A stretch of 64,000 nucleotides of DNA from a bacterium (GTDB taxonomy: Bacteria; Sysuimicrobiota; Sysuimicrobiia; Sysuimicrobiales; Humicultoraceae): the NCBI GenBank assembly GCA_050695215.1, contig JBOGSD010000068.1, positions 25,097-89,096 on the forward strand. Direction: 5' to 3'. This document shows, piece by piece, positions 4,205 through 40,319 of this stretch. The stretch's first letter is position 1. Each line of letters opens with the position of its first letter. Under the pieces are notes generated by a model, which saw nothing but the letters and a program-made list of their open reading frames with translations, searched no databases and was not told where the DNA came from. The translations under genes were made by a program, and so were the position numbers.

Positions 4205-4828
4205 ATGGGTCGAGCGCTGACGCGGCGCCAGGCGGAAATTCTCACTTTCATTCAACGGTACAGTGAGACGCACGGCTACCCGCCGTCGGTGCGTGAGATC
4301 GGCCGGGCCCTCGGTTTGACCAGCAGCTCGACGGTCCACAGCCATCTGGCTGCGCTGGAAAAGAAAGGCTACCTGCACCGCGACCCATCGAAGCCCCGCG
4401 CGCTGGAGATCCTCCGGGACGAGCACGCCATGGCGCCCAAGAAGATGGTGCCGCTGCCGGTCGTCGGCCGGGTGGCCGCCGGCACCCCGATTCTGGCCGA
4501 GGAGAACATCGAAGACTACCTGCCGCTGCCGACCGAGTTCCTGCGCGACGGCGGCGACGGCGGCTTCATCTTGCACGTCCGCGGCGACAGCATGATCGAC
4601 GACGGTATCCAGGACGGGGATTATCTCATCGTCCGCAAGCAGCCGACGGCCCGGGACGGCGACATCGTCGTGGCCCGTTTGGATGACGGCGCCACCGTGA
4701 AGCGCTTCTACCGTGAGGACGGCCACGTCCGCCTCCAGCCCGCCAACGCCGCCATGGAGGCGATCCGCACGCGCGACGTCCACATCGAAGGCAAGGTTGT
4801 CGGTCTGATCCGCCGGATGGTCTCCTAA
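4205..4828 (+). CDS. lexA: LexA repressor
   Basis: N-terminal winged HTH (GYPPSVREIG). C-terminal S24 peptidase with AAG cleavage site and Ser/Lys dyad (GDSM...KRF). AAGGAGG RBS. Confidence 0.9.
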   Translation: MGRALTRRQAEILTFIQRYSETHGYPPSVREIGRALGLTSSSTVHSHLAALEKKGYLHRDPSKPRALEILRDEHAMAPKKMVPLPVVGRVAAGTPILAEENIEDYLPLPTEFLRDGGDGGFILHVRGDSMIDDGIQDGDYLIVRKQPTARDGDIVVARLDDGATVKRFYREDGHVRLQPANAAMEAIRTRDVHIEGKVVGLIRRMVS

Positions 4829-10664: not shown

Positions 10665-11548
10665 CGCGGGTCCCCGCTCCCCCCCTCGCCGTAGCGCTCG
10701 GACAGGGCGAGGTACTCATCCAGGCGGACCAGGGCGTCCCGCTCGGCGAACGCCGCGCGCGCTGCCTCGGGGGTATGACCCTCCCGGCGCAGCGCGGTGA
10801 GGGCGCGCTGCATCCCCCGGACGGCCGCCAGCTGCGCGTCGGCGGGGAAGATGACGATCCGATAACCGAGCACTTCCAGGTCGCGGGGGGCGAGCAGCGG
10901 GCTCTTGCCGCTGTAGGTCATGTTGTAGAGCAGAGGGTGGCGGATGGCGCGGGAGATCGCGGCCACCTCGTCCACCGATCGCGGCGCTTCGACGAAAATC
11001 ATGTCCGCCCCGGCTGCGGCGTACGCCGTCCCGCGGCGCACCGCCTCCTCCAGCCCCACCGCGGCGCGCGCGTCGGTGCGGGCGATGACGATCAGGTCGG
11101 GGTCGGTCCGCGCCTCCACGGCCGCGCGGATCTTGCCGGCCATCTCTTCCAGCGGGATCAGATCCTGGCCGTCGTAGTGGCCGCAGCGCTTTGGAGCGAT
11201 CTGGTCCTCCAAATGCAGGGCGGCGACGCCCGCCGCCTCGTAGGCACGTACCGTCCGCCGCACGTTCAACGCGTTCCCGTAGCCGGTGTCGGCGTCGGCG
11301 ATCACCGGCACCGTCACCGCCTCAGTGATCTGCCGGATCCGCGCCACCATGTCGCTGAGGTCGAGCAGGCCGAGGTCGGGCAGGCCGCTGCTGCGGGCGA
11401 TCGCCCCTCCGCTGGCGTAGACTGCCTCAAACCCGGCCTCCTCCGCAAGGCGCGCGGAGAGGCCGTCGAAGACGCCGGGGGCGACGAGGATGGGACCATC
11501 AGCGATCCTTGCGCGGAGGCGTTTGCGCTGGGCGGTCGCCTCGCTCAT
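10661..11548 (-). CDS. Isocitrate lyase/PEP mutase family lyase (2-methylisocitrate lyase PrpB-like)
   Basis: KRCGH signature of the ICL/PEPM family. DADTGYG metal site. A GTG at 11554 is an alternative start. Confidence 0.75.
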   Translation of the reverse strand: MSEATAQRKRLRARIADGPILVAPGVFDGLSARLAEEAGFEAVYASGGAIARSSGLPDLGLLDLSDMVARIRQITEAVTVPVIADADTGYGNALNVRRTVRAYEAAGVAALHLEDQIAPKRCGHYDGQDLIPLEEMAGKIRAAVEARTDPDLIVIARTDARAAVGLEEAVRRGTAYAAAGADMIFVEAPRSVDEVAAISRAIRHPLLYNMTYSGKSPLLAPRDLEVLGYRIVIFPADAQLAAVRGMQRALTALRREGHTPEAARAAFAERDALVRLDEYLALSERYGEGGSGDPR

Positions 11549-19953: not shown

Positions 19954-20077
19954 CCAGCGCAGCCCTCGCGGTTGTGGCTGTTCTGGTCAGGACCGAGGAA
20001 TCCTGCCCCTCCATGGCGAATAATGAGAGTTGGAGCGGCCCCGAACGCCCCCACATCATCCTCCTTCGAGGTGCATC

Positions 20078-20632
20078 ATGCGACTCTTCGTCGTTGCGCT
20101 GCTCGTCGCCCTCGCCACCCCGCTCGCCGCCGCCCCTTCCTCCGGGGGAGTCACTCCCGCCCCCGATCCGGCGGTGGCCGTCCTGGCCCGTCTCTCCGGC
20201 AAGGACTTTGACGTCGCCTACATGCGCCTGGTCGTCCCCGCTCATGAAGAGGCGGTCGAGGTGGCCATGGCCGCCACCTTGTGGGCCGATCATACAGATC
20301 TGCTGAAGTGGAACCAGCGAATGATCGAGCGCAAGAACGCGCAGGTGCGCCAGATGCTCACGCTGCTCGGCAGCGTGGGAGCAGGACCGACGCAGCGCTA
20401 CGCCGGCGTCGCCACGCCGACGGTGAAGAAAGTGCGCGCGCTGCGCGGCGGCGCGCTGGAACGCACCTACATGACCTATCTGATCACCCACTTCGACCGC
20501 AATGTTGCCTTCTCGCGGATGGCCGCGGGCAAAGGCAGCCCCGGAGTGAAGGCTCTTGGTGCGGCCATCGTCCAGGTGGAAGCGGGCGAAGCCACCATGC
20601 TCCGCGGCTGGATGAAGAAGTGGTATCCGTAG
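20078..20632 (+). CDS. DUF305 family protein (secreted, ferritin-like HxxE motifs)
   Basis: Signal peptide starting MRLFVVALL. PAHEEAVEVA and ITHFDRN repeats typical of DUF305. The ORF-track start lies upstream, but the signal peptide and a GAGGTG RBS favour 20078. Confidence 0.65.
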   Translation: MRLFVVALLVALATPLAAAPSSGGVTPAPDPAVAVLARLSGKDFDVAYMRLVVPAHEEAVEVAMAATLWADHTDLLKWNQRMIERKNAQVRQMLTLLGSVGAGPTQRYAGVATPTVKKVRALRGGALERTYMTYLITHFDRNVAFSRMAAGKGSPGVKALGAAIVQVEAGEATMLRGWMKKWYP

Positions 20633-20639
20633 CAGCCTT

Positions 20640-21251
20640 CTAGCGGCGGCGCAGGCGCCCCAGCAGCTCGCGTCCCCGGCGGGGTGTGATGGAATGGGGC
20701 GCCGGGGCCAGCCGGATGATCTCAAAGAGGCCCCCAAAGAGCGCGCGGATCTCTTCCTCCGAAACCGCAAAGGGCGGCCCCTCCGGCGGGTAGCCTGGGG
20801 GCAGGACCGGAAAGAAGAGCGCCAGCACCTCCCCCCCAGGGCGCAGCACGCCGGCGAGCACCTCGACGTACTCGCCACGGCGCGCCGGGCTGATCGCACA
20901 GAAGCACGTGTACTCCAGCGCATAGTCGAAGACTGCGGGAAAGCGGCCCGGAAGGGAAAAGAGGTCGGCCTGGAGGAAGGTGCAGGCCGCCCCCTCAGCC
21001 GCGGCCAGGGCGCGCGCGGCCCTCACCGCCGAGGGGGCATGATCGACGCCGGTCACGTCAAAGCCGGCCCGCGCAAAGAGCACGGCGTCATAGCCGCGGC
21101 CGCAGCCGGGGACCACCATCCGTCCCGGCGCGGGAGCGTCCGGGCCGGCCAGCAGATGGACGAACGACGGGGTGGGGCCGCCGAGGTCCCAGGCCGCGGT
21201 GCCCTGCCGGTACTGCGTCTCCCAGAACTCGGCGCGATCGACGTCCGTCAT
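20640..21251 (-). CDS. Thiopurine S-methyltransferase (TPMT) family SAM-dependent methyltransferase
   Basis: N-terminal W..W..aaWDLGG motif and GCGRGYD SAM-binding motif. Confidence 0.7.
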   Translation of the reverse strand: MTDVDRAEFWETQYRQGTAAWDLGGPTPSFVHLLAGPDAPAPGRMVVPGCGRGYDAVLFARAGFDVTGVDHAPSAVRAARALAAAEGAACTFLQADLFSLPGRFPAVFDYALEYTCFCAISPARRGEYVEVLAGVLRPGGEVLALFFPVLPPGYPPEGPPFAVSEEEIRALFGGLFEIIRLAPAPHSITPRRGRELLGRLRRR

Positions 21252-21316
21252 AGCGGGAACGGCGTCAGTATAGCCGGAATGATCTGAGCGGAAAGTACGA
21301 AAAGGGGGAGTGGGAC

Positions 21317-21760
21317 GTGAGACTGAAGATCGCGGCCCTCGTTCTGGCGGCCCTATTGCTGGGCGGCGCGGTCGGGGCCTACGCGCAGGACGTCATCACC
21401 ATCATCAAGACCGTCGGCATCGGGGTAGCGGTGCGGACCTTCGCGCCGCAGATCAACACCTTCATCAATAACCTGCTGCAGGCGCGGGACGCGGAGACGA
21501 AGGAGACGACCAAGGTCGTGCCGATTCTCTCCATCTCCATCGGCATCGGGACGCCGGGGCGGGCCACCATCGGCGCGGCGCAGGTGGCGGGGCCGAAGTC
21601 GGCGGTGGCGCGCACCCAGGCCGTCGCCGCCATCGACGCCAACTTCTCGGGCGTCTGGCAGATCCGCGCCCTCATCCCGGTGGACAGTCTGGAACCGTGG
21701 AAGCGGCTGCGCCGCGTGGTCGGCGTGGGCGTCTCCGCCATCATCGACGTCCGCATCTAG
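21317..21760 (+). CDS. Secreted hypothetical protein (147 aa)
   Basis: Signal peptide ending AYAQD. No recognised domain. Confidence 0.45.
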   Translation: MRLKIAALVLAALLLGGAVGAYAQDVITIIKTVGIGVAVRTFAPQINTFINNLLQARDAETKETTKVVPILSISIGIGTPGRATIGAAQVAGPKSAVARTQAVAAIDANFSGVWQIRALIPVDSLEPWKRLRRVVGVGVSAIIDVRI

Positions 21761-21856
21761 TCCCACGGCCGTCCGCATCGAGTTCCGCAGTCGGGCTTCT
21801 AGGGTGGAGTCCCAGCCTGTCACGGCTTTCCTTCGGGAAGGTCGTCACGGGTTTTC

Positions 21857-21956
21857 TGGTGGCGGAGGGCCCTGGGAATCGAACCCAGCGCGGAACCCGA
21901 GGCCCCGCCACCGGTTTTGAAGACCGGGACCCGCACCAGCGGACACTGCCCTCCGC
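21857..21956 (-). tRNA. selC: tRNA-Sec (selenocysteine tRNA, anticodon UCA)
   Basis: Reverse complement reads GCGGAGGG..GUCCGC-UGGU-GCGGGU..CCGGU-CUUCAAA-ACCGG..long variable arm..CUGGG-UUCGAUU-CCCAG..CCCUCCGC-CACCA. The anticodon loop CUUCAAA is identical to E. coli selC. 6-bp D-stem with 4-nt loop, long extra arm, about 100 nt total. The exact 5'/3' ends are uncertain by 1-3 nt because of the CCACCA tail. Confidence 0.75.
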
Positions 21957-22047
21957 ATCGCTCAAGCAGTCTTATCCTGAGAGGTATGCTATCATGAGCG
22001 CAAAGACCGGCGCGGGCCGTCATTCACGCCACGTTTCGGAGGACTCC

Positions 22048-23238
22048 ATGCGCCCTGCCGTCCTGCTCCTCGCCGCGCTGTTGGCGATCGTCCTCACTTT
22101 CCCCGGCTTCACCGCTCCGATTCCCTGTCCCGTCATCGAAGGCGTCGGGGTGGGCGCCGTGCGTATCGGCATGTCCGCCGCCGAGGGCCTCCGCCTGGCC
22201 GGTACGCCCGCCGGACGAGTCACGGGGACGCGGGCCCAGGAGACCGTTTACCTTTTTGCCACCACGCTGGCGCAGATCACGGTCGAAGGGGGCTTGGTCA
22301 GCCGCATCGCCACGCGCCATCCTACCTGCGTGACCGCCCAGGGGGTACGCATCGGCGACAGTGAAGCGCGGATGCGCGTCGTCTACGAGCGCGCTCCCGG
22401 TAGCCTGCGGGGGCGGGCGGGCGCGGTCACCCGATACGTGTTTCCGTTCACCGGCATCGAATTCATCCTCACCGACGGACGCGTGACCCTGATCGAGGTC
22501 TTCCGGCCCGACGCGCTTCCCGCCCGCGGGACGCCGACCCCAGCGGCGGCGGGAGGCGAGTCCACGGTCGTCTTTCGATCGCTGGCCGGCCGCGCCGACG
22601 GGACGAGTTTTGTGGTCACGGGGTCGGTCGCCAACGCGGGCGCTCCCCTCGCCCTGTTCGTCCAGGTGATCCTGCTCGGACCGGAAGGCCGGCAGGTTGG
22701 AGAAGGCACGGCCACGCTGGTGCCCAACCCGGTCGGCGGGGGTCGCGCCGGATCCTTCGAAGTGCGCCTGCCTCTCGACGAGATCGTCACCCGCTTCGTG
22801 GTCATCGTACGGCCGATGAACCGGCCCGCCACCGCGCTGGCGGAGACGTCGCAGGAGGTCAAGGACGCGGGGCAGTTCGCCGACGTCGTCATCGAACGCC
22901 TGCTGGAGGTGACGGTGCTGGGGGCGACCCTGGAGCGGGCCAGCGGAACCCACGCCGCGGTGACCAACCGGAGCTCGCTCAAGATCACCGGGCTGGTCAT
23001 CGAGATCGAGATGCGCCGTGTTTGCCGGGTGACGCCGGTCGGTAGCACACTGCCCCAGGTGCCCACGACCTTTACCGACATCCGCAAGGGGACGGTGCGG
23101 ATCGGCGAGCTCGCCCCGAACGCCCGCGTCGAGGTGCCTATCGACCTCTCCGCGACCGGGCCATGCCTGGGCGCCGGCGCTGAGTGGCAGGCCTCTTGGA
23201 AAGTCCTCTCGGCCAAGGTGGAAGAGGAAAAGAAGTAG
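22048..23238 (+). CDS. Secreted hypothetical protein (about 396 aa)
   Basis: Signal peptide starting MRPAVLLLAALLAIVL with a GGAGGA RBS. An alternative ATG is at 21994. The upstream part of the ORF-track ORF overlaps the tRNA-Sec gene and is rejected. Confidence 0.5.
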   Translation: MRPAVLLLAALLAIVLTFPGFTAPIPCPVIEGVGVGAVRIGMSAAEGLRLAGTPAGRVTGTRAQETVYLFATTLAQITVEGGLVSRIATRHPTCVTAQGVRIGDSEARMRVVYERAPGSLRGRAGAVTRYVFPFTGIEFILTDGRVTLIEVFRPDALPARGTPTPAAAGGESTVVFRSLAGRADGTSFVVTGSVANAGAPLALFVQVILLGPEGRQVGEGTATLVPNPVGGGRAGSFEVRLPLDEIVTRFVVIVRPMNRPATALAETSQEVKDAGQFADVVIERLLEVTVLGATLERASGTHAAVTNRSSLKITGLVIEIEMRRVCRVTPVGSTLPQVPTTFTDIRKGTVRIGELAPNARVEVPIDLSATGPCLGAGAEWQASWKVLSAKVEEEKK

Positions 23239-23242
23239 CGGG

Positions 23243-25249
23243 TTACTGAGCGCGCGGCGTGGCCGGTGGGGTCTCCCCGGCGCGAACGGCGAGGACCCGC
23301 CGGTCTCCTACCCGGCGGGTCAGGCGAACGCCGTCAAAATATTCGAGGAGCGCTAGCGCATATTTCCGGCTTGTCCCCAGCCCATCGCGCAGCGCCGCCA
23401 CGGTAATCTCTCCGGCGCGGTCAATGTGGGCGACGATCCTCTCCCTGATCTCTTCGAGCACCGCCGCGGCATAGTAGATGCCGGGCGCCACTTCGATGAG
23501 CGTCCCTTCTTCCTGCAGGGATTGGGCCGCGATGTGGAAGGCCGAGGGCTCGCCCCGCGGGCCGTGCGGGCCCCCTCCCGTTTGGCCGGCCGGGTGCGTC
23601 TCCACCTCCGCCAGTCCCGGCGGAGCGAAGCGCCCATCGGTCATCGCCGCCAGCAGGATCTCCCGCCACCGCCCCTCCTCGGGGGCATACCGGGGGCCCC
23701 ATCCGGAGAGGTGGACGAATCCCCGCGTTATACCGATGACCCCGGATGCTAAGAACCGGTCCAGCACCGCGCCGGCCAGACGATCGTCGGCCTCAGCCAG
23801 CACCCGCCGCCTCACCTCTTCCCGCGGCAGGCCGAGGCGCCAGGGCCTGCCTCGATGGGTCTCCTCCAGCAGCCGGACCAGACGCTCCCTGGCTCCCTCC
23901 ACGACCTCGTGCGCCAGCAGCCGGCCGCCGATCAGGAGGAGGTCGCCCGACGCCACCAGGGTCCGCAGCCTCTCGGCCAGCGTTGCGGCGGATTCGGCCA
24001 GGACGGAAGTGAGAGTCTCAGGCGTGGTCCCGGCCAGCCCGCGAGCCGAGACGGCCTGCCGCAGCACCGCCTCCGGAGGCGCGCCGGCCAGCGCCGCCAC
24101 CGTCTGCGCGGAGGCCGCCCCGCGCCGGCGCCGCGGCGGATCGGCCGCGAGGACCTCTCCGCCTCCCAGCGTGGTCAGCGGCGAGTAGCGTCGCAGCACG
24201 AAGCGGTCGCCCCGCGCCGCCACCACCGGCCGCTCAAAGCGCAGCTGCGCAGGGGCCTCCTCGCCAGGGGCGAGGAGGTCGCGGTCCAGCAGGGCGATGC
24301 GGCAGAGCGCTTCGTCGGTCCCGAGATAGAAGCGCAGCCGGGCCAGATGCGCCAGCGGCGGGGCACCCGCCAGCAGCGCCACGCGCACGTCCAGCAGGGA
24401 CGCGGGGCGCAAGGTTGCGGGCGTCGCCAGCACCGCACCTCGGGCCAGCGCCTCGCGCTCGGCGCCCACCAGGTTGAGCGCGGCCCGCGAGCCGGCCAGG
24501 ACTTCATCCACCCGCGTCCCGTGCCGCTGGATCTGGCGCACCCGGGCGGCCTCGCCGCCGGGGAGAACCGCCAGCGCGTCGCCGGTGCGGATGCGGCCGC
24601 TCCAGAGCGTCCCCGTGACGACGGTGCCGAACCCGGTCATGGTGAAGACCCGGTCGACGGGAAGGCGCACCGGACCCTCGGCGGACCGGGCCGTCAGGGT
24701 GTCGAGGCTGTGTCCGATCGCCCCCACCAGGTGGTCCAGGCCGGCGCCGGTCCGGGCGGAGACCCGGACGATCTGGGCGCCGTCGAGAAACGTCCCGGCC
24801 GAGAGGTGGCGCAAGTCCTCCTCGACCAGGGCCAGCCATTCCGCGTCGTCCACAAGATCGATCTTGGAGAGGACGATCAGTCCGCCGCGCGGGCGGAGAA
24901 ACCGCAGGATGTCCAGGTGCTCCCGAGTCTGCGGCATGATCCCCTCGTCCGCCGCCACCACCAGAAGCACGAGGTCCATCCCGCCTGCTCCGGCCAGCAT
25001 GGTGCGGATCAACCGCTCGTGGCCGGGTACGTCGACGATCCCGGCGCGCCGCCCGCCGGGGAGGTCGAGGTGAGCGAAGCCGAGGTCGATCGTCATCCCG
25101 CGCCGCTTCTCTTCATCCAGCCGGTCGGGGTCGATACCCGTGAGGGCCCGGACGAGGGCGCTCTTGCCGTGGTCGATGTGCCCCGCCGTGCCGATAACGT
25201 AGGCGGCGGGGGAGTCCGAGACGCCGGTTGGATCTGTCCCGATGCTCAC
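23243..25249 (-). CDS. selB: Selenocysteine-specific translation elongation factor SelB
   Basis: G-domain [23 protein letters not shown]-terminal winged-helix SECIS-binding domains. Start proposed at GTG 25249, overlapping the selA TGA as GTGA; the ORF-track N-terminal extension is rejected. Confidence 0.85.
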
Positions 25250-26682
25250 CGCAGCGCGGAGAAGGCCGCGACGACGGCCTCGACGTCGTCCGGCGAAAGC
25301 GTCCGTAGATTCAGCAGGAGAGCTTCGTCCTGAATGCGCGCGATCACCGGCGGACGAGCCTGGCGGAGCTGCGCCGCCCAGGCCTCCGCTCCGGCTCGGC
25401 GGGGACGCACCCGCACTGCCGACGACGACAGGCCGGCCTCGGGGAGCGCTCCTCCCCCCACCTGTGCCTCGGCGCCGACGACGGCCACCTCCGCGCCTTC
25501 TCCGAGTCGCTCTCTCAGGCGGTCCGCGAGCCGCTGCGCTCGCGCCTCCAATTCCTCGGGGCCGGCCGCCAGCATCTGCAGAATGGGAATCTGCGCCCAC
25601 GCCTCTCCGGGCGTCAGGTAATGGCGCAGCGTCGCCGCCAATGCGGCCAGGTCGAGCCGGTCGATGCGGAGCGCCCGCGCCAGGGGATGACCGCGGCAGC
25701 GGCTGACCGCCTCCTTCGTCCCTACCAGCAGGCCGGCCTGCGGGCCCCCCGCCAGCTTGTCTCCACTGAAGGTTACCAGCGCGGCGCCGGCGGTGACCGC
25801 GTCCTGCACCGTCGGCTCGCGCGGAAGGCCCCGCTCGGCCAGGTCCACCAGCGCGCCGCTGCCCAGGTCATACATGACGGGGATGCTGCGGCCGGCGGCC
25901 AGCGCCACCAGCTCGGGCACCGGCACCTCGTGGACGAACCCCGACATGGCGAAGTTGCTGCGGTGCACCTTCAGCACCAGCGCGGTCTGCGGCGTTAATG
26001 CCCGTTCATAGTCGGCCAGGTGGGTGCGGTTGGTGGTGCCCACCTCTACCAGCCGAGCGCCGCTTTGGGCCATCACCTCCGGCATGCGAAAGGAGCCGCC
26101 AATCTCCACGAGCTCGCCCCGTGAGACGATGACCTCGCGTCCCGCCGCGAGGGCGGCGAGACCGAGGAGGACTGCCGCCGCGTTGTTATTGACGGCCAGA
26201 GCGGCCTCTGCACCGCTGATCTCTTCCAGCAGCGTCTCGACGTGCGCCTGCCGCGATCCCCGGTCGCCGGTTTCGGGATCGATCTCCAGGAAGGTATAGC
26301 CGGTCAGCGCCGCCCGCACCGCCTCCTGGGCGGCCGCACTGAGCGGTGCTCTTCCTAGGTTGGTGTGAATGAGGATGCCGGTGGCGTTGACCGCGCGCAC
26401 CAGTGAGGGATGGCCATACCAGGCGAGGAGGCGGGCGCTGTCGGCGAGGACCTGCTCCGGAGCCCATCCGGCCGGAGCCGTCCCCTCGATTAGCCCGCTT
26501 CGGGCCTCCTTCAGCAGCCGGCTCCTCGCCGTCTCCAGCGCCTGGCGGACGAAGCGGGCGGCCAGCGGTCGTGGAATACCGTCAAGACGACCGGAGCCTT
26601 CCAGCTGCGAAAGCACGCGCTCTACCGAGGGGAGCTGACGAAGCCGCACATCACGCGGGTCAGGAGGGTCGGTCACCCCCAC
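25246..26682 (-). CDS. selA: L-seryl-tRNA(Sec) selenium transferase SelA
   Basis: SelA signature VNATGILIHTNLGRA. PLP-Lys region FSGDKLAGGPQAG. Confidence 0.88.
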   Translation of the reverse strand: MGVTDPPDPRDVRLRQLPSVERVLSQLEGSGRLDGIPRPLAARFVRQALETARSRLLKEARSGLIEGTAPAGWAPEQVLADSARLLAWYGHPSLVRAVNATGILIHTNLGRAPLSAAAQEAVRAALTGYTFLEIDPETGDRGSRQAHVETLLEEISGAEAALAVNNNAAAVLLGLAALAAGREVIVSRGELVEIGGSFRMPEVMAQSGARLVEVGTTNRTHLADYERALTPQTALVLKVHRSNFAMSGFVHEVPVPELVALAAGRSIPVMYDLGSGALVDLAERGLPREPTVQDAVTAGAALVTFSGDKLAGGPQAGLLVGTKEAVSRCRGHPLARALRIDRLDLAALAATLRHYLTPGEAWAQIPILQMLAAGPEELEARAQRLADRLRERLGEGAEVAVVGAEAQVGGGALPEAGLSSSAVRVRPRRAGAEAWAAQLRQARPPVIARIQDEALLLNLRTLSPDDVEAVVAAFSALR

Positions 26683-26691
26683 TCCTCCTCC

Positions 26692-27555
26692 CTATTCGGC
26701 GGCCAGCTGGAGCGGCGGGGGCTGCGGGTCGGCGCGACGGTCCTGGGCGCGCTCGCGCAGCCGTTGAGGGACCTCAGGGGGCAGGTACTGACTGCCGAGC
26801 GGCACGCCGGTGGCCAGGTCGGCGCCGTGAAAGTCGGTCCCGCCGGTCACCAGAAGGCCGTGGCGTTTGGCCAGCGCCAGGTACCGCTCCACCATCTCGG
26901 GCGTATGGTCAGGGTAATAGGCCTCAATGCCTTCGAGGCCGTCTTCGATCAGCGACTCGACCCTGGCGTCGTCCCCCAGCCACCCGGGATGGGCCAGGAC
27001 GGGAATGCCGCCGGCCCGGCGGATGATCTGCACCGCCTCCCCCGGGGTGACCTTCAGCCGCTCCACATAGGCCGGGCCGTTCCGTCCGATGTACCGCGTG
27101 AAGGCCTCCGCGGTCTCGCTGACCCACCCCGCTTCGACCAGGGCGCGGGCGACGTGGGGCCGGCCGACCGCTCCTCCGCCGGAGAAGGCCAGCACCCGCT
27201 CCATGGCGACGGGGGCTCCCAGCGCGCGGAGTTTTTCCACCATGCGTTCGGCGCGGTGCAGCCGGCCGTCGCGGAGGCGGCGGAGCAGCCGCTGGAACCA
27301 GGCGACATGGTGGTCGAGCAGGTAACCCAGGAGGTGCACTTCCGCGCCCGGCACGTCGGTGTTGAGCTCCACCGCGGGCAGGACCTCGATCCCCACGCGG
27401 GCCCCGGCGGCCATCGCCCGGTCCACGCTATCGGTGGAATCGTGGTCGGCGACCGCCAGGATCCCCACGCCCGCGGCGCGGGCCAGATCGATCAGCTGCT
27501 CGGGGCTGAGCAGGCCGTCGCTGGCGGTGGTGTGCGCGTGCAGGTCGATGCGCAC
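26692..27555 (-). CDS. PHP-domain metal-dependent phosphoesterase
   Basis: MRIDLHAHTTASDG and downstream His/Asp motifs of the PHP family. Confidence 0.75.
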   Translation of the reverse strand: MRIDLHAHTTASDGLLSPEQLIDLARAAGVGILAVADHDSTDSVDRAMAAGARVGIEVLPAVELNTDVPGAEVHLLGYLLDHHVAWFQRLLRRLRDGRLHRAERMVEKLRALGAPVAMERVLAFSGGGAVGRPHVARALVEAGWVSETAEAFTRYIGRNGPAYVERLKVTPGEAVQIIRRAGGIPVLAHPGWLGDDARVESLIEDGLEGIEAYYPDHTPEMVERYLALAKRHGLLVTGGTDFHGADLATGVPLGSQYLPPEVPQRLRERAQDRRADPQPPPLQLAAE

Positions 27556-28341
27556 CTAGTCTGGGCCCTCCTGCAGTTCCCGAATTCGCTCGATCGCCCG
27601 GGCGTGCCCGTCCCCATCGACGTCGATCACCACCCCGTTCAGCTGTGCCACGCCCCCGGCCACGGTGAAGCGGGTGGGCAGACCGGAGCGGAAGTGCTCC
27701 AGGATGACCTCCCGGTCCATGCCGATAACCCCGTCCCGCGGCCCCGTCATGCCGACGTCGGTGATGTAGGCGGTCCCACCCGGCAGGATGCGCTCGTCCG
27801 CGGTCTGGACGTGGGTGTGCGTTCCGACGACCGCGGAGACGCGGCCGTCCAGATGCCAGCCCATGGCGATCTTCTCCGAGGTGGCCTCCGCGTGAAAGTC
27901 CACGACGATCACCGCCGCGCGATCGCGCAGTTCCGTCACCGCGGCGTCGGCGGCGCGGAAGGGGTCGTCCAATTCTCCCATGAAGACGCGGCCCTGCAGG
28001 TTGAGCACTCCGACCGCCGTCCCGTCCGCTTCCACCGTGGCCGCCCCCCGACCGGGCGCCCCCGGGGGGTAGTTGGCCGGCCGGAGCACGCGGGGATGCG
28101 CGTCCAGCAGCCCGTAGGCGTCGCGGTTGCGCCAGGTGTGGTTGCCGCCGGTGATGAGGTCGACGCCCGCGGCAAAGATCTCCTCCGCCGTCTCCTCGGT
28201 GATGCCCATCCCTCCGGCCGCGTTCTCGCCGTTGGCGATGACGAGGTGGGCGCCATGCCGCCGCCGCAGCTGGGGGAGGAGCGCCTTGAGGATGCGCCGG
28301 CCGGGTTTGCCGGTGACGTCGCCGATCAGCAAAATTCTCAT
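27556..28341 (-). CDS. ymdB: YmdB-family metallophosphoesterase (TIGR00282)
   Basis: MRILLIGDVTGKPGRR, GENAAGG and GTHTHVQTAD motifs. Sits immediately downstream of rny, as in Bacillus. Confidence 0.8.
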   Translation of the reverse strand: MRILLIGDVTGKPGRRILKALLPQLRRRHGAHLVIANGENAAGGMGITEETAEEIFAAGVDLITGGNHTWRNRDAYGLLDAHPRVLRPANYPPGAPGRGAATVEADGTAVGVLNLQGRVFMGELDDPFRAADAAVTELRDRAAVIVVDFHAEATSEKIAMGWHLDGRVSAVVGTHTHVQTADERILPGGTAYITDVGMTGPRDGVIGMDREVILEHFRSGLPTRFTVAGGVAQLNGVVIDVDGDGHARAIERIRELQEGPD

Positions 28342-28401
28342 CGACAGCCGTCCCGTCCGCCTCCGCGGCCCCCGCGCCGGCCGCCGCCTGAGGCATGGCG
28401 G

Positions 28402-29919
28402 TCAGCGGGCGTATTCGATGGCCCGCGTCTCGCGCAGGACCGTGACCTTGATCTGCCCCGGATACTCCAGGTCCGCTTCGATCTTCTTGGCCAGATCGCG
28501 GGCGAGGGCCTGGGCCGAAAGGTCGTCCACCTCCGTCGGCTTCACGATCACGCGGATCTCACGGCCGGCCGAGATCGCGAAGGATTTCTCCACTCCTGGG
28601 AACGAGGCGGCCAGCTGTTCGAGGTTCTGCAGCCGCTTGATGTACAGTTCGACGGTCTCTTTGCGCGCCCCCGGCCGGCTGGCCGAGATGGCGTCGGCCG
28701 CCGCCACAATGATCGCCTCGACGCAGGTGGCCTCGGCGTCTCCGTGATGGTACTCGATCGCGTTGATCACCTCGGGCGGCTCATGGTAGCGCCGGCAGAG
28801 ATCCACGCCGATGGCAGAATGGGTCCCGTCCACTTCGTGGGTGAGCGCCTTGCCGATGTCGTGGAGGATGGCGGCCCGCCGGGCCAGGGCGGGATCGGCC
28901 TCCAGGTAGGTGGCCAGCAGGCCCGCCAGCAGCGCCACTTCCACCGAGTGTTGGAGCAGGTTTTGGCCGTAAGAGTGGCGGAACTTCAGCCGGCCGAGGA
29001 TCTTGATCTCCTCCGGGTGCAGCCCGTGCACCCCGGCCTCGAACGCGGCCTGCTCCCCCTCCTCCTTGATGCGCTGCTCCAGTTCCCGCTGGGATTTTTC
29101 CACCATCTCCTCGATGCGGGCGGGGTGGATGCGCCCGTCGACGATCAACTTCTCCAGGGCCAGCTTAGCGATCTCCCGCCGCACCGGGTCAAAGGAGGAG
29201 AGCGTGACCGCCTCGGGAGTATCGTCGATGATCAGGTCCACGCCGGTGAGGCTCTCCAGCGCGCGGATGTTGCGGCCCTCCCGGCCGATCACCCGGCCCT
29301 TCATCTCTTCGTTGGGCAGGGGGACAACCGAGACGGTGATCTCCGCCGTGTGGTCGGCGGCCACGCGTTGGACGGCCAGGGCGACGATCTCGCGGGCGCG
29401 CCGGTCGGCGTCCTCCCGGGCCCCGGATTCGATCTTCTTGGTCAGGGCGGCCGCATCCCCGCGCGCCTCATCGCCGACCTGGCGCAGCAACTGCTCCCGC
29501 GCCTCGTCGGCGGTGAGCCCGGAAACGCGCTGGAGCTCAGCCTTGGCGTGTTCTCTGAGGGCGTCGACCTCTTCGCGCGCCCCCGTCACGTCCTGTTCCT
29601 TCTGCGCGATCAGCCGTTCGCGTTTCTCCTGGACTTCTCCCCGCCGTTCGAGGTTCTCCTCACGCTGGACCAAACGCCGCTCGAGGCGCTGGATTTCCGT
29701 CCGCTGCTCGCGGATCTCACGCTCAGATTCTCGTTTCAGCCGGAAGGCCTCGTCTTTGGCTTCGACGACTGTCTCCCGCTTCTTTGCGTCTGCCTCTCTC
29801 GCCGCCTCCTCCACAATCTTGCGGGCGGCGGTCTCGGCGGATTGAATCCGCGCCTCGGCGACGCTCTTGCGCAGGAAGAATCCAAGGAGGAACGCGATCA
29901 CCCCCACCCCAACGAGCAA
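28402..29919 (-). CDS. rny: Ribonuclease Y
   Basis: N-terminal TM helix, coiled-coil, KH domain and HD domain (HSVEVA...HDIGK). Confidence 0.88.
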
Positions 29920-30160
29920 TCCGATCGCGAGGGGGTCGATGGGTGGTCACCTCCTCTGCCCGCCTGATGGCGGGCGAATATGAGAACGGCGCCCCCGCGG
30001 GGGCGACCGTCACCCTGCTGCAGAACGCCGCGCGCATCACCTGCCGTTCGAGCGGAAATGAGCGCACAAGACCTATCTCCGTCATTCTACGCGAGAGGTC
30101 AAAAACAGGTCAAGAAACCCAGGACACTACCCGGCTCGGGGACCCCGGCCGCGGCGCTGG

Positions 30161-32395
30161 TCAGTGCGTCGTGGGGGGTGGCTGCCAGAGGGGCCCGGGC
30201 AGGTCGGGCGGCGGCGGCGCGGAGGCGTCCACGGGGATGACGCGGTCGGCGTAGGGTTCATACTCCGGGCGGCACGTAAACAGCAACACCTGGTGGGTCT
30301 CGCTGACGCGGCGCAGCAGGGCCATCGCCGCGGCCAGACGCTCCGGATCGAAGGAGCCAAAGGGGTCGTCCAGCAGCAGCGGCGGGCGCCGCCCCTCCGA
30401 GAGCACCTCCACCAGGGCCAGGCGGACGGCCAGGTAGACCTGGTCGGCGGTGCCCCGGCTGAGGGTCGGTTCGGCCGGCTCGACCCACTGTGCCGCCGCG
30501 TCGGCCCACACCGTGATCTGCAGCGGGTTTTCCGTGATGCTGACTCGCCCATACGCCGCCTGAGTGAGGAGGGCCAGGTACTCTCCCGCCCGCTCCTCCA
30601 CGCGCTGCCGGGCCGGGATCACGGTGAGCTCTCGGGCCAACCGCAGCCCTGCGGACGCCAGACGGACCACTCGTCCCCGACGCTCCGCCGTCTCGAGGGC
30701 CTCCTGCCGGTCGGCCAGGCGCTCCTCGGTGGCCGCCAGCGCTTCATCGTCGGGCGCGCCCTGGGCGGTCTCCCGCTCCAGATATTCTCGCCGCCCTGCG
30801 AGCGTATGCACCGTCTGGGTGAGGTCCTTCACCGTCCGCTCGAGCTGCTGCACCTCGAGGCCGGTGAGGCGTTTGGCCTCCGCGTCGCTCAGCTGAATCT
30901 CCCGTCCGGCCACGTCCGCGCGCCGCCGGTCGCGCGCCTCTCGGAGATCCGCAAGGTCCTGCCCGCCGAGATGGGCTGCCACCTGACTCCCGGTGCCGGT
31001 CCGGTCGTCTTCCAGCTGGCGCATCCGCGCGTGGCGCGCCAGCGCCTCCTCCACGGTGGCGCTCCCGGCCCCGGCGACCGTCTCTTGGAGGGCCGCCTGT
31101 GCCGCGATCAGTTCTTCCTGGGCCGCGGCGAGGTGTCGTTTGGCCTCCTCCAGCCGCAGGAGGGCCTCGGCGCGTGTCCGCGCCACGTCCTCACGGCGCC
31201 GCCGCCGCCGTTGCTCGAGGCCGAGCAGGAGGAGGCCAGCCAGGCCGGCCGCCACCGCCGCGGGCCAGAGGGGTCCGACCGACCAGACAGCCGCCGCCGC
31301 CGCGGCGACGGCGGCGAGGACGATCAGCAGCCAGCCGAGGGGTCGTCTCCGGCTCCGCGCGTCGACGGAGGCGGCGGATGCCGTCACGCTTCCGGTCAGC
31401 GTCTCGGCGGCACCGACCCTGCGTGCCAGGTCCTCGGCGGTCTTCTCCTGCTGCTGCACCCGCCCGGCCGCCGCGTGGATGCGGGCGACCGCGGTGTCGT
31501 CGGGGACTCCGCTGGCCTGGAGCGCCTCCAGGTCGCGCCCAATGCCTTCGAGGCGATCGTACCCTCGCTCGACGGCGTTCACGCGTTCCGCCAGTTGCCG
31601 GGCCTCCGCGCGGAAGTGCTCCAACTCGCGATCGATGCGGAGCAGCCGCTGGTTCTCGGTGAGCAGGGCCTCCCGGTCGGCGAGGTCGGTGGCCGCCCGG
31701 TCGGCCTCCTCTCGGAGGCGCCTGAGCTCCTCCCGCTGTCCCTCCAGCACCTCGACGCGGCGGCGGAGTCCATCCCGCTCCCGCGTCAGCGCGGCCACCT
31801 CGTCCTGCCGGCCGCGAATCACCCCGGGCGTTTTTACGGGACGACCATCCAGCCCCTTCTCCAGTTCAGCCAGTTCCTTGTCCAGCTTCTTGATCACTGC
31901 GCCCGCCTCGGCATCTCCCGGGCCGGCCTGAATGATGCGGGAGAGGCGCTGCCCGATGTCCGTGGCGCCTTTCTGCAGGACGGTCAGCTCGGTTTGCTCG
32001 ATCATGGCCGTCGACCGATACAAGGGCTCTGTGGAGAGGCCAAGGGCATGCTGCAGCCGTTCCTGGACCTTGCCGCCTTCCCACGACACGCCGTTGAGCA
32101 GATCACGGAGCTCCGTGCGGCGGTGCTCGAAATCCTTGCGCAGCTCGAAGCGCCTGCCGTCCAGCTCAAACTCTACGGAGATGGAGCCCACGCGGTCGCT
32201 GCCCCAGGGGCGCCACTCGGCGACCTTCTTGGCCGTCGTGGCCGGGTTGACGAAGAACGCGGCCAGGATGGCCTGACGCAGCGTCGACTTGCCGGCCTCA
32301 TTGGGACCGACCAGGAGGTTCAGGCCCGGATCGAAGCGGTACTCCGCATCGTCGAAGCGGCGGAAGTTGCGCAGACGGAGGGCGAGCAACCGCAT
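30161..32395 (-). CDS. sbcC: SbcC/Rad50-like DNA repair ATPase (744 aa)
   Basis: N-terminal Walker A GPNEAGKST, long coiled coil, C-terminal signature and D-loop (LLLDDPFGSFD). ATGA overlap with sbcD. Confidence 0.75.
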   Translation of the reverse strand: MRLLALRLRNFRRFDDAEYRFDPGLNLLVGPNEAGKSTLRQAILAAFFVNPATTAKKVAEWRPWGSDRVGSISVEFELDGRRFELRKDFEHRRTELRDLLNGVSWEGGKVQERLQHALGLSTEPLYRSTAMIEQTELTVLQKGATDIGQRLSRIIQAGPGDAEAGAVIKKLDKELAELEKGLDGRPVKTPGVIRGRQDEVAALTRERDGLRRRVEVLEGQREELRRLREEADRAATDLADREALLTENQRLLRIDRELEHFRAEARQLAERVNAVERGYDRLEGIGRDLEALQASGVPDDTAVARIHAAAGRVQQQEKTAEDLARRVGAAETLTGSVTASAASVDARSRRRPLGWLLIVLAAVAAAAAAVWSVGPLWPAAVAAGLAGLLLLGLEQRRRRRREDVARTRAEALLRLEEAKRHLAAAQEELIAAQAALQETVAGAGSATVEEALARHARMRQLEDDRTGTGSQVAAHLGGQDLADLREARDRRRADVAGREIQLSDAEAKRLTGLEVQQLERTVKDLTQTVHTLAGRREYLERETAQGAPDDEALAATEERLADRQEALETAERRGRVVRLASAGLRLARELTVIPARQRVEERAGEYLALLTQAAYGRVSITENPLQITVWADAAAQWVEPAEPTLSRGTADQVYLAVRLALVEVLSEGRRPPLLLDDPFGSFDPERLAAAMALLRRVSETHQVLLFTCRPEYEPYADRVIPVDASAPPPPDLPGPLWQPPPTTH

Positions 32396-36600: not shown

Positions 36601-36670
36601 CGGCGAATTCTAAGATCAACTGGCCGCCGTCGGGGCGGTCAGGATAGCGCTGCAGAGGGCGTCCTGTCAT
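33605..36670 (-). CDS. UvrD/PcrA-like ATP-dependent helicase with C-terminal RecB/Cas4-type (Cys-cluster) nuclease domain (AddA/AdnB-like)
   Basis: Walker A AGAGTGKT and UvrD motifs. C-terminus carries CRYCAFNSICPY (Fe-S Cys cluster) and PD-(D/E)xK-like residues. Confidence 0.8.
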   Translation of the reverse strand: MTGRPLQRYPDRPDGGQLILEFAAKGSPDRFSDRTTERAADRALEGLNEEQLRAVTFGEGPLLIVAGAGTGKTSVITRRIAWLIAARRARPSEILALTFTDKAAAEMEERVDLLTPYGYTDITIGTFHAFGDRVLRQHALELGLPPDVRVLSRAEQVLFLRDRLFELPLRYYRPLGDPTRYVEALIALFSRAKDEDAGPEEYAAFAERVSAAAAQASDDAELADAARKQGELAQAYRVYQTMLGREGLLDFGDQITLPLRLFRERPGVLRAYQERFRYILVDEFQDTNYAQFQLVQLLAGQHRTVTVVGDDDQAIFKFRGASISNILGFTATYPDATQVVLTRNYRSPQPVLDVAYRLIRHNDPDRLEVRNQIDKRLTSSSTGPEVQHLHFDTLSSEADGVAAHIAERVAAAAYRYKDFAILVRSNHDADPFLRALNLRGVPHRFTGNRGLYNREEIRLVLAFLRALANPADNLSLYYLGISPIYLISPTDVAKALAYANRRNRTLEYVFRRLTAFSDLAEEIGPETRAALDRLLDDLDEMRRLMKDQPTGRVLYSYLVSRTGLVGRLATSENPTDEMAVRNLARFFEIVARYGEIATYDRVPEFVKHLDDLIAAGDDPAMAEADFDSDAVNVLTVHKAKGLEFPVVFLVSAVADRFPTRNRGEPIALPDPLVKDLLPQGDFHLQEERRLFYVAMTRTRRELYLTSARDYGGVRPRKVSRFVLEALDRPAPESAAFRAAPTETIQRHAPPTEGQQTLAGVIPPEEPLSLSFRQVDDYATCPLKFKYTHILRVPLLRDHRVVYGSAVHEAVREYNRRRARAQPVTAADLLTIFERAWINEGFISREHEDQRMEEGRAVLRTFFDFQEAQGRRPTFVEAPFSFQVGLTRVKGRWDRVDLRGSDAVVIDFKTSDVRTQKDADRRARESRQLGIYALAYREVYGKPPERLELHFLGPQQVLVGETAPDEEMLAEATQVIEHASGGVRAQQFIATPDYYVACRYCAFNSICPYTATGDPVLPETPE

Positions 36671-37359
36671 GAGGGGTCCAGGACCTCGTTCCTCCCCCGC
36701 CGCCGCAGGGTTCCGCCGTTCGGGCCAGGGCCCAACTGCCGCGCGGCCTCCCTGAGGATCGGGGCGATGGTGCTGCCGGAGAATCCCCGCCGCCTGAGGA
36801 GACCGGCCAGGCGGCGCAGGCGAACATCCAGGGTGAGCGCCTGTCCGCGGCTCAGATAGCGCGCCGCCGCGGCGGCCGCCATCTGCTCCTCCTGCTCCGG
36901 TGGCAGCGCCGCGCGCAGCGTCTCCTCGATGATGTCGGAGGCGACGCCCTTGAGGCGGAGCTCGGCCCGCAGCCGGTGCGGCCCTCTGCGGCCCGCGGCG
37001 AGCCGGCCATCGATCCAGAGCCTGGCAAAACGCCGGTCGTCGATCGTCCCGGCCTGAACCAGGTCGGTCAGCACCGCCTCCACGGCGGGGAGGGCGAAGC
37101 CCCGCCTTCGGAGCCGTCCGGTCAGTTCTGCCCGGCTGCGCGGGCGGTAGCGCAGGAGCGCCAGGGCGGCCTCACGGGCACGAGTCTCCTCGTCCAGCGT
37201 GGCGAGGCGTGTGAGGACCAGCGCGTCGATCTCCGTTGCCTCGGTAAGGGCAAGAGGGAGAGCGCGTTCCGCGTCCACCAAGAACCGGCGGCTATCGGCA
37301 AGCGTGACGGCGCGCAAGTGGCCCCCCCGTCCCGCCGGCCGGATTCGTCCGATCTGCAT
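36667..37359 (-). CDS. recX: RecA regulator RecX
   Basis: Triple helical repeat RecX-like sequence immediately downstream of recA. Confidence 0.75.
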   Translation of the reverse strand: MQIGRIRPAGRGGHLRAVTLADSRRFLVDAERALPLALTEATEIDALVLTRLATLDEETRAREAALALLRYRPRSRAELTGRLRRRGFALPAVEAVLTDLVQAGTIDDRRFARLWIDGRLAAGRRGPHRLRAELRLKGVASDIIEETLRAALPPEQEEQMAAAAAARYLSRGQALTLDVRLRRLAGLLRRRGFSGSTIAPILREAARQLGPGPNGGTLRRRGRNEVLDPS

Positions 37360-37362
37360 TGG

Positions 37363-39516
37363 TCAGGCCTTGACCTTGACCGGCGCCTCCTTGACCCCTG
37401 TTGCTTCGCGCTTGCCCTCGGCGCCGTCGCGTGAGCCTGCGCCGTTGCGCCGGGGCAGTCCCAGCGTGTCCCGGGTCCGCGTCTCCAGCTCGCGGGCCAG
37501 CTCGAGATTGCTCTCCAGGAAATCGCGCGCGTTGTCCCGCCCCTGGCCCAGGCGGAGGTCGCCGTAGGAGAACCAGGTGCCGGTGCGGCTGATCAGTCCG
37601 GCGGCGTGCGCCGTGTCGAGCAGGCTGCCGGTCCGGGAAATCCCCTGTCCGTAGAAGATGTCCACCTCGGCGTCGCGGAAGGGCGGGGCGAGCTTATTCT
37701 TCACCACTTTGATCCGCGCCCGCATGCCCTTGATCTCTTCCCCGCTCTTGATGGACTCGATGCGGCGGATCTCCATGCGCACGGAGGAATAGAACTTGAG
37801 GGCGCGGCCGCCAGTGGTGGTTTCCGGCGAGTTGTGGACGACAGCACCGCCGACGAGATAGGTGTGGTTGCCCTCAACCTCCAGATCAAACCGCCGCATG
37901 GAGCGTGTCGGCGGCTTCTTGTAGATCCGGGCGATCCTCGCGGGGACGGCACGGAGATACCGTCGGGCCGAGAGGCGGGTTCCGTTCAAGTGTGCATCAC
38001 TGAGATCGGGCTGCCAGGCATATCGACCGCGCAACGTGGGGTGAAGCTTATAATCCACTGACGGATGGAGATAGGGGGCGATCAATTCATGAAACTTCGC
38101 GGTCTGCTCTGCCGTAAACCAAAACCCCCGGCCGTCATCACGCGGTCGACCCACTCCGAGCCGTTCAAACAGGGCGGCCACCCGTTCCCGGTCAGTGCCC
38201 TGAAGCGACGTGTTGTAAATCGCAGCCTTTCCGTGACCCCAGCGTGCAAAGTGCCCGGCGAAGGATCCGTCGTCGCCGTACCATACGGCCACGCCGCGGG
38301 CATCGAGTTGGTCAAGGACCGTTGCCGCGGCGGTTCGCTGGCCTTCGGCGTACAAACTGGTCCGCAGTTCAGCAAGCGTGGGGAATGCGAGTGTTTCAAA
38401 TCCCTGTCCATTGCCCCTGGGACCGAAGTCCTGCGAGAACGGTTCCAGCATCCAGTGCTTCCATCTCGCATATGCGGTTTGTGCTTCCCCATGGCCCACC
38501 CGGAAGGACGCCGCCTGGGTACTCACCTGCCGGAGCGCTCCGTCACCCAGCGTCCCGCCCAGGATGAGCTGCAATTGATCCTCGGTCAGACGGTAGTCTT
38601 CGACTGAAGCCAATACCTCGTCACCTTCGCGGAGCTCACCCGCGGGAACTTCTCCCCGGGGCGTGAATATCATGTGGTTGGGAGTAACGCCAAATCGGCG
38701 CCGGCCCGACGGACCCCCTTCGATCTCGAATTGGAGGAAATGCTCGGCGTTCCCATTGTCGAACCAATTCACGACGCGGCGCGGCTGCAGCCTCCCGGTC
38801 GCGGCATCGTAACTGAGCACCTCGACGGGTATCCGCTGGTTGACGATCTTGCCGATCTTCATTCTGCTTCCGTCAGCGAGCACGACGCGAGCATTGTAGT
38901 GGAAGCAGCCAAACATGACCCCGATCTTCTCTCGGATCTGGTTGATGAAGATCACGGTGGTGTGGGACTTGCTGATCGTCCCCACCAGTTTGCGCAGCGC
39001 CTGGGACATCAGCCGGGCGTGCAGGCCGACGTGGGCGTCGCCCATCTCCCCTTCCAGTTCAGCCCGCGGCACCAGCGCGGCGACCGAGTCGATGACGATG
39101 ACGTCCACCGCGCCGCTGCGCACGAGCATCTCCGCGATCTCGAGGGCCTGCTCGCCGCTGTCGGGCTGGGAGAGCAACAGGCCATCGATGTCTACCCCCA
39201 CGGCCCGGGCGTAGTTGGGGTCGAGGGCGTGCTCGGCGTCGATGAAGGCGGCGACGCCGCCGTCGCGCTGCGCCTCGGCGATGATGTGGTAGCCCAGCGT
39301 GGTCTTCCCGGAGGCTTCGGGCCCGTAGATCTCCACGACCCGCCCCCGGGGGACGCCGCCCACCCCCAGGGCCGCGTCCAGGGCCACCGAGCCTGTCGAA
39401 ATCACTTCCACCTGTAATTTGGCAGAGGCTTCGCCCAGCCTCATGATGGAGCCCTTGCCGAACTGCTTCTCGATCTGGGTCAAAGCGAGCTCCAACGCTC
39501 GCTGGCGCTCATTCAT
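37363..39516 (-). CDS. recA: Recombinase RecA precursor containing an in-frame intein (717 aa; exteins 203+155 aa)
   Basis: Exteins align with RecA: Walker [10 protein letters not shown], ...[10 protein letters not shown] | [14 protein letters not shown].... A 359-aa insertion begins with Cys and ends with HN followed by Ser. Confidence 0.92.
37831..38907 (-). mobile_element. RecA intein (RecA-b insertion site) with LAGLIDADG-type homing endonuclease domain
   Basis: N-terminal splice junction G|[15 protein letters not shown]-terminal block [14 protein letters not shown]|S. Two LAGLIDADG-like motifs ([23 protein letters not shown]). Confidence 0.85.
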
Positions 39517-39586
39517 GCCGCGATTCCTCCCTCAGTCACGCCGCCCCGCCCGGCCGCATCGTCCATTTGAGATGCCGCCACAGTAC

Positions 39587-39600
39587 CAAACAAATGTTCG
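39587..39600 (-). promoter_or_regulatory. Candidate LexA (SOS) box CGAACATTTGTTTG upstream of recA
   Basis: Same CGAAC-N4-GTTTG form and the same orientation relative to the gene as the lexA box. Lies about 70 nt upstream of the recA ATG. Confidence 0.5.
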
Positions 39601-39705
39601 CATGTCAACTCTGCAAAACCCTCTGCTCCGGCCGATATTGAGGAGGGGCGTCCGGCAGCACATCGCATCAAATCCTGGGGTGATCGGCCGATCCCCGCAC
39701 CAGAT

Positions 39706-40314
39706 CTAGCGGTGCTCCTCAGGAGGATTCAAGGCGACGCCCAGTGGAACCTCCTGGAGGCTGGTGTATCTGGCGCCTTTTGGATGGAGGTGGCTCTCCA
39801 TGATCGCCAACGAGTCCACCGACTGCGCGCCCACCGGGACATCCTTAAATCCACTGAGCGCGCGGACGATCTCCCCCCAGCGGCGCTGGTGCTTCAGGCG
39901 GGTGATGGTGAGGTGGGCCACATACGGTCGTTTCTCACGCGGGAAGCGGTGGCGGGCGAGGGCGTCATCCAGGCGGGCCGAGATCACGGCCAGGTGCTCG
40001 CTTCCTTCGTGCACACCGATCCAGATGACCTGGGGCCGCGCCAGAGAGGGAAACGCTCCCACCCCCCGGAGGACCAGGCGGAAAGGCGATGCCGAGGCGG
40101 CGGCCTCGCGGGTGGCCAGACGGACCTGCGCCAGCTGCGCGGGGGAGATCTCCCCGAGGAAGCGCACGGTGAAGTGCAGGCTCTCCGGCGAAATCCACCG
40201 CAGCGGGGCGCCGGCTTGCCGCAGGCGCTCCTCCAGGCGGACGATCTCGTCGCGCAGCGCGCCGGCGAGGTGCACGGCGATGAAGATGCGGTGCCGCTGC
40301 CCTGAGACGCCCAT
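39706..40314 (-). CDS. thpR: RNA 2',3'-cyclic phosphodiesterase (ThpR/LigT, 2H family)
   Basis: Two H-x-T-x motifs (HFTVRF, HLTITR). Start set at the internal ATG at 40314; the upstream Arg/Gly/Pro-rich part of the ORF-track ORF is rejected. Confidence 0.7.
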   Translation of the reverse strand: MGVSGQRHRIFIAVHLAGALRDEIVRLEERLRQAGAPLRWISPESLHFTVRFLGEISPAQLAQVRLATREAAASASPFRLVLRGVGAFPSLARPQVIWIGVHEGSEHLAVISARLDDALARHRFPREKRPYVAHLTITRLKHQRRWGEIVRALSGFKDVPVGAQSVDSLAIMESHLHPKGARYTSLQEVPLGVALNPPEEHR

Positions 40315-40319
40315 GCCGC

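Follow-up and report, generated by a model that had tools for sequence, protein, structure and literature searches.

We analyzed a 64,000-nt stretch of contig JBOGSD010000068.1 (assembly GCA_050695215.1, positions 25,097 to 89,096 of the forward strand; hereafter the window) from a bacterium assigned to Humicultoraceae. Three genes for selenocysteine (Sec) insertion were found on its minus strand: selA (25246-26682), selB (23243-25249) and the tRNA-Sec gene selC (21860-21954). We interpret them, with a probability of about 0.9, as a functional and canonical bacterial Sec-insertion gene set. Romero et al. (2005, PMC1273633) concluded that Sec decoding is marked at the gene level by selB together with selC. 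The original prediction had described the organism as a Sec user, and this is supported by an intact tRNA-Sec together with intact SelA and SelB proteins under purifying selection. Judging from the families to which the products belong, seryl-tRNA synthetase would charge the tRNA-Sec encoded by selC with serine, and SelA, an enzyme dependent on pyridoxal phosphate (PLP), would convert Ser-tRNA-Sec and selenophosphate to Sec-tRNA-Sec. SelB in its GTP-bound form would then bind both Sec-tRNA-Sec and a Sec insertion sequence (SECIS) hairpin just 3' of an in-frame UGA, and deliver the tRNA to the ribosome.

The selA and selB genes and their junction

The selA gene encodes an L-seryl-tRNA(Sec) selenium transferase of 478 amino acids. 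The protein matched the Pfam family SelA (PF03841) with 484.8 bits and carried a Se-cys_synth_N domain at residues 14-53. It scored 561.3 bits against the NCBIfam equivalog TIGR00474, for which the cut-off is 267.9, and covered model positions 1-453 of 455. Over nearly its whole length, SelA also aligned with the solved structures of the A. aeolicus (3w1h) and E. coli (8uzw) enzymes. The PLP-lysine motif SGDKLLGGPQAG (SGDKLxGGPQAG) was retained, and the segment 'fsgdklaggpqagllvg' of the window SelA aligned to 'gsgdkllggpqagiivg' of A. aeolicus SelA 3w1h. The lysine of this motif binds PLP. The start codon of selA is either GTG 26682 or GTG 26676, two codons later, and a Shine-Dalgarno sequence, GGAGGAGGA, lies immediately 5' of the gene.

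The selB gene ends with TAA and encodes a Sec-specific elongation factor of 668 amino acids. Its product contains the Pfam domains GTP_EFTU, GTP_EFTU_D2, Beta-barrel_SelB, SelB-wing_2 (residues 459-514) and SelB-wing_3 (residues 608-653). It scored 354.5 bits against the equivalog TIGR00475 (cut-off 242.25), and the EF-Tu models stayed far under their own cut-offs. Residues 18-653 aligned in one continuous stretch, winged-helix C-terminus included, to residues 2-605 of the 614 residues of E. coli SelB, for which a structure has been solved. Compared with that protein, the window SelB begins with about 16 additional residues, which are not conserved. An exact look-up of the 668-residue SelB returned no such sequence on record. 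The original prediction had placed selA and selB at the coordinates given above, and both genes were intact there, with no internal stop or frameshift and with scores above their equivalog cut-offs.

The stop codon of selA and the GTG start of selB share the sequence GTGA at 25249-25246, as had been proposed from the sequence. This GTG was the sole canonical start before the GTP-binding motif of SelB; no other in-frame ATG, GTG or TTG was found between the two. Three contigs of the same species, 99.7-99.97% identical to the window, had exactly this junction, and gene calls made independently on two of these contigs, L081 and L083, gave the same selA and selB starts. The nearest other species also have a four-base overlap, which reads GTGA in L002 and ATGA in L001; both are metagenome-assembled genomes (MAGs) labelled Armatimonadota with selA-selB-selC clusters. 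In the more distant L003 ('Bacillati bacterium ANGP1'), L004 ('MAG: bacterium MAG079') and L024 ('Armatimonadota bacterium SAR307'), a spacer was followed by a selB ATG a few codons ahead of the GTP-binding motif. On this comparison of the SelB N-terminus with its homologues, the predicted GTG start is well supported by the junctions of the relatives. Because the GTG is not preceded by a Shine-Dalgarno sequence, translation of selB is probably coupled to termination of selA via the GTGA overlap.

The selA-selB spacers of L003 (approximately 11360-11440) and L004 (approximately 11370-11420) contained many short repeats of the AGTGA/GTGACTAG type. In L003, the repeats make up an extended inverted repeat, GTGACTAGTGGCTGGTGACTAG ... 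CTAGTCACCAGTCACC, which was absent from the window. This inverted repeat could form a hairpin that acts in regulation or as a terminator.

The tRNA-Sec gene

ARAGORN called a tRNA-SeC with the anticodon TCA (UCA in the RNA), the sole tRNA that it called in the 64-kb window. The Rfam model RF01852 matched at 21864-21954 with 70.1 bits (gathering score 47; E 2.7e-12), and no other RNA was found when the whole window was scanned against Rfam at the gathering threshold and at E<=1. A tRNA-Sec gene had been predicted at 21857-21956 with its strand unstated. The gene itself held up in both searches; its boundaries are revised to 21860-21954, and it lies on the minus strand. As read from the sequence, the tRNA has a D stem of 6 bp with a 4-nt loop, a T stem of 5 bp, a long variable arm and the discriminator G73, and CCA is encoded in the gene. 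The acceptor stem contains 7 standard pairs, followed by A.G at position 8. In an alignment of the window gene with six genes from related loci (n=7), both sides had changed in 14 of 24 pairs of the D, anticodon and T helices, and the observed covariation value was matched in none of 500 shuffles. The selC gene lies downstream of selB in the same orientation, at a distance of approximately 1.3 kb that includes a gene on the opposite strand, and is probably transcribed separately from selAB.

A tRNA resembling tRNA-Sec and a factor resembling SelB could also serve a non-canonical use, in which a residue other than Sec is delivered or another codon is recoded. The A.G at acceptor position 8, which is common to L024 and corresponds to A.A in L004, would be in line with such use, as would the N-terminal extension of SelB. 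Against this, the anticodon is the standard UCA, and SelA, which is needed only to make Sec, is intact and co-located. The 'DR' residues of SelB were kept in the alignment (VDRVF against IDRAF), in a region that we take to correspond to the Sec-binding pocket of the E. coli SelB structure, and no other departure from the canonical system was observed. Non-canonical use is the least probable of the alternatives considered here, and a tRNA that inserts Sec remains our reading of selC.

Searches for selD and selenoprotein genes

We searched the window for the selenophosphate synthetase gene selD and for selenoprotein genes. By a codon-usage score, 51 genes were called, and 50 of them were scanned against Pfam. 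Among these 50, neither the AIRS and AIRS_C domains of SelD nor families known for selenoproteins were detected. A tblastn search at E<=1e-5 with E. coli SelD, which served as a probe only, gave no match in the window, while 18 of 80 related loci were matched. In-frame TGA codons with coding potential on both sides (40, 20 or 12 codons) were found only antisense to long annotated genes; the short-window matches at 6376, 26122, 32974, 38605 and 55907 were all of this kind and were rejected as frame artefacts. A scan in the same frame past gene stops and before gene starts returned only two neighbouring pairs, rny/ymdB and recA/recX, in which each gene is complete in itself and the shared frame is coincidental, and a scan of the window for CxxU or UxxC returned nothing. 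The Pfam scan, the tblastn search and the in-frame TGA scans yielded no candidate, which agrees with the earlier statement that the 64 kb hold no selD and no open reading frame (ORF) interrupted by UGA.

It may be asked whether a selenoprotein gene or selD was missed inside the window, for example a very short gene or one with Sec near an end. Six gene calls had no family assignment, and the in-frame TGA scans require the UGA to be flanked on either side by at least 12 open codons that score positively for coding, which leaves some room for such a gene. The SelD probe found its target in 18 other loci and nothing here, all short-window TGA matches were antisense, the scan of gene ends gave only complete and separate neighbours, and no known selenoprotein-containing family occurred among the 50 scanned genes. 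We consider a missed gene highly unlikely, and the UGA-containing selenoprotein genes and selD would instead lie elsewhere in the genome.

We also examined how common an unlinked selD is in a set of 30 selA loci, the window being one of them, each flanked by 8 kb or more on either side. In 9 of the 30, selD was located within 10 kb of selA. The selB gene was in reach in 16 of these loci and tRNA-Sec in 8, and five of the 30 had both selB and tRNA-Sec in reach without selD. In a survey of genomes, likewise, selD was seldom found adjacent to selAB (Romero et al. 2005, PMC1273633). Since selD was linked in only 9 of 30 loci and rarely adjoins selAB in the literature, no selD near selAB is to be expected. 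For selAB, having no selD or selenoprotein gene nearby is the common case and reflects the usual dispersed arrangement.

Selective constraint, relatives and the strength of the reading

Comparison of selA and selB with five or six relatives gave ratios of nonsynonymous to synonymous substitution rates (dN/dS) of 0.16-0.35, with synonymous sites near saturation. These results indicate that selA and selB are under purifying selection. Within the genome collection, SelA was best matched by MAGs labelled Armatimonadota (75-78% identity) and by 'Bacillati bacterium ANGP1' (58-62% identity). Short contigs of the same species as the window were present in GCA_975103605.1 and in the Logan assemblies SRR27067778 and SRR27067775, and YmdB was found on three same-species contigs, each at most 6.8 kb long.

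Loss of selD and/or the selenoproteins would have left selA, selB and selC as orphans heading to decay. This account would explain why neither selD nor a selenoprotein gene was seen in 64 kb, and a precedent is on record in the orphan selA homologue of H. pylori (PMC1273633). The dN/dS of 0.16-0.35 speaks against such decay. Neither selA, selB nor selC is disrupted, and equivalog-level scores and catalytic motifs are preserved; the tRNA is well over the Rfam threshold; and the cluster is conserved in relatives at only 52-78% protein identity. Moreover, every surveyed genome with both selB and selC also had selD and selenoproteins (Romero et al. 2005, PMC1273633). A relic is very unlikely on this evidence, if ahead of a missed gene, and a functional Sec-insertion gene set is favoured.

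Several observations weigh against the functional, canonical interpretation. With neither selD nor a selenoprotein gene seen, use of the machinery in this genome is not directly demonstrated. The 8th acceptor pair of the tRNA, A.G, is not a Watson-Crick pair. The missing Shine-Dalgarno sequence before the selB GTG fits translational coupling and leaves the start unproven. Finally, no terminator-like hairpin was found between selB and the convergent gene at 22048-23238.

The gene array and neighbouring genes

The selA and selB genes close an array of five closely spaced genes on the minus strand, in the order rny-ymdB-PHP-selA-selB. The first gene, rny (28402-29919), encodes RNase Y with the Pfam RNase_Y_N, KH and HD domains. 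It is followed by a ymdB-like metallophosphoesterase gene (27556-28341; Pfam YmdB, 362 bits), and the assignments of both are also supported by synteny. A gene for a PHP-domain phosphoesterase (26692-27555; Pfam PHP) comes next, the product of which gave below-cut-off NCBIfam matches to 3',5'-nucleoside bisphosphate phosphatase and to RNase RNM. The gap is 60 nt between rny and ymdB and 9 nt between the PHP gene and selA, and ymdB abuts the PHP gene. The order of the array, including the position of the PHP gene, was kept in four related loci, L003, L004, L012 and L024, in which SelA identity was 56-62%. A promoter scan of 21200-30200 gave one sigma-70-like match, with 10 of 12 positions matching and 0.3 matches expected. 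This candidate promoter, TTGACC-18-TAGAAT, was identified by its match to the consensus and is located 5' of rny at 30084-30113 on the minus strand. The arrangement suggests that the five genes may be transcribed together, for which the sequence upstream of rny would be a candidate promoter only.

A less ordinary account would be that the Sec machinery is co-transcribed with rny-ymdB-PHP, or that selA, selB and selC are kept without a canonical selD, with selenium activated otherwise. If true, co-transcription would tie the synthesis of Sec-tRNA to the expression of RNase Y. We hold this account to be about as improbable as decay of the genes. The findings describe a textbook Sec system, already known, in a new host, and no new biology is indicated.

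The gene between selB and selC (22048-23238, plus strand) encodes a hypothetical secreted protein of 396 amino acids with a hydrophobic N-terminus resembling a signal peptide. It had a coding score of 152 and a GGAGGA Shine-Dalgarno sequence before its ATG at 22048, and its product had no Pfam or NCBIfam match. A secreted hypothetical gene had been noted between the sel genes; the gene is real, and it lies on the plus strand, antisense to them. It converges on selB and points away from selC, and its stop codon and that of selB are 4 nt apart (23236-23245). The transcripts of selB and of this gene would each run antisense into the other gene. In L024, the corresponding selB and hypothetical gene overlap by 4 nt, at 6913-6916.

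On the other side of selC, a small gene (21317-21760, plus strand) encodes a hypothetical secreted protein of 147 amino acids with no Pfam or NCBIfam family match. A homologue with 61% identity was found in L024 (9550-10023), and both adjoin the tRNA-Sec gene. L024 also carries two tandem homologues of the 22048-23238 gene in the same convergent position, followed by tRNA-Sec, the small-protein homologue and mutS. A role in Sec metabolism was considered for the hypothetical genes flanking selC and rejected: they have no family matches, and they are absent in L004, where selC directly follows selB. Their conservation in L024 is part of that of the whole rny-to-mutS block and gives no specific functional link. 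These genes are lineage-specific passengers and not Sec components.

Farther from selC are a gene for a methyltransferase of the TPMT family, which uses S-adenosylmethionine (20640-21251, minus strand; Pfam TPMT, 104 bits), and a gene for a DUF305/CopM-like secreted protein (20030-20632, plus strand). Bacterial TPMTs methylate selenium compounds. As a selenium-methylating partner, the TPMT gene was rejected, with 49 bits against the cut-off of 223 for TIGR03840 (Se/Te thiopurine methyltransferase) and no counterpart at the L024 position. The TPMT/DUF305 pair is probably a coincidental neighbour of selC. We also rejected a horizontally acquired island around selAB and selC. The G+C content of the window is 70% and was even around these genes (0.64-0.77), repeats were at the level expected by chance for GC-rich DNA, and no integrase was found nearby.

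Other features of the window

The recA gene (37363-39516, minus strand) encodes a 717-residue protein with an intein, in which the RecA domain is split into residues 6-204 and approximately 630-685. The intein comprises a Hint module (residues 202-293) and a LAGLIDADG homing-endonuclease domain (residues 316-422). The recX gene follows directly at 36667-37359. The interval of approximately 800 bp between recA and cinA (39517-40319) contains only a weak ORF call (39712-40305, plus strand; coding score 26) with no Pfam or NCBIfam match, and no Rfam match was found in the interval. A tyrosine recombinase gene of the phage-integrase family (3112-4020, minus strand) adjoins lexA (4205-4828, plus strand), and two small ORFs without family assignment are located downstream of the recombinase gene (2307-3115). 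The recombinase may be of the Xer type or a mobile-element remnant.

Comparison with known systems

The window extends a known system to an uncultured high-GC lineage, which can now be flagged in annotation as a probable Sec user. Where genes elsewhere in its genome, such as one for formate dehydrogenase, contain an in-frame UGA, that codon should accordingly not be taken for a stop or for the sign of a pseudogene. The system is only mildly distinctive, in its attachment to rny-ymdB-PHP, the four-base overlap, the convergent gene without a terminator and the non-Watson-Crick acceptor pair 8.

Among related loci, L004, L024, L003 and L012 (the last, like L003, 'Bacillati bacterium ANGP1') share the order of the array with the window, and in related selA-selB-selC clusters tRNA-Sec is likewise downstream of selB on the same strand. 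L024 resembles the window further in its convergent hypothetical gene, small secreted protein gene and mutS. It differs in that a dihydroxy-acid-dehydratase-like ORF, recognized by eye from its translation, replaces the TPMT and DUF305 genes. In L004, tRNA-Sec comes directly after selB with nothing in between, and L003 and L004 have an intergenic selA-selB spacer instead of an overlap. In selA-selD-selB-selC clusters such as those of L031, L036, L066 and L078, tRNA-Sec is found just after selB, as in the window. These clusters carry selD between selA and selB, a position at which it is lacking in the window and its closest relatives.

Set beside E. coli selAB, selC and selD, the window matches in its three components and in their domain architecture, and selA is directly upstream of selB. 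E. coli selC is separate from selAB, and in the window it is 1.3 kb from selB. Unlike E. coli, in which selAB stand alone, the window has selAB appended to the rny-ymdB-PHP array with a gap of 9 nt. The selB GTG of the window overlaps the selA stop, and the N-terminus of its SelB is approximately 16 residues longer. In both, selD is unlinked to selAB (PMC1273633).

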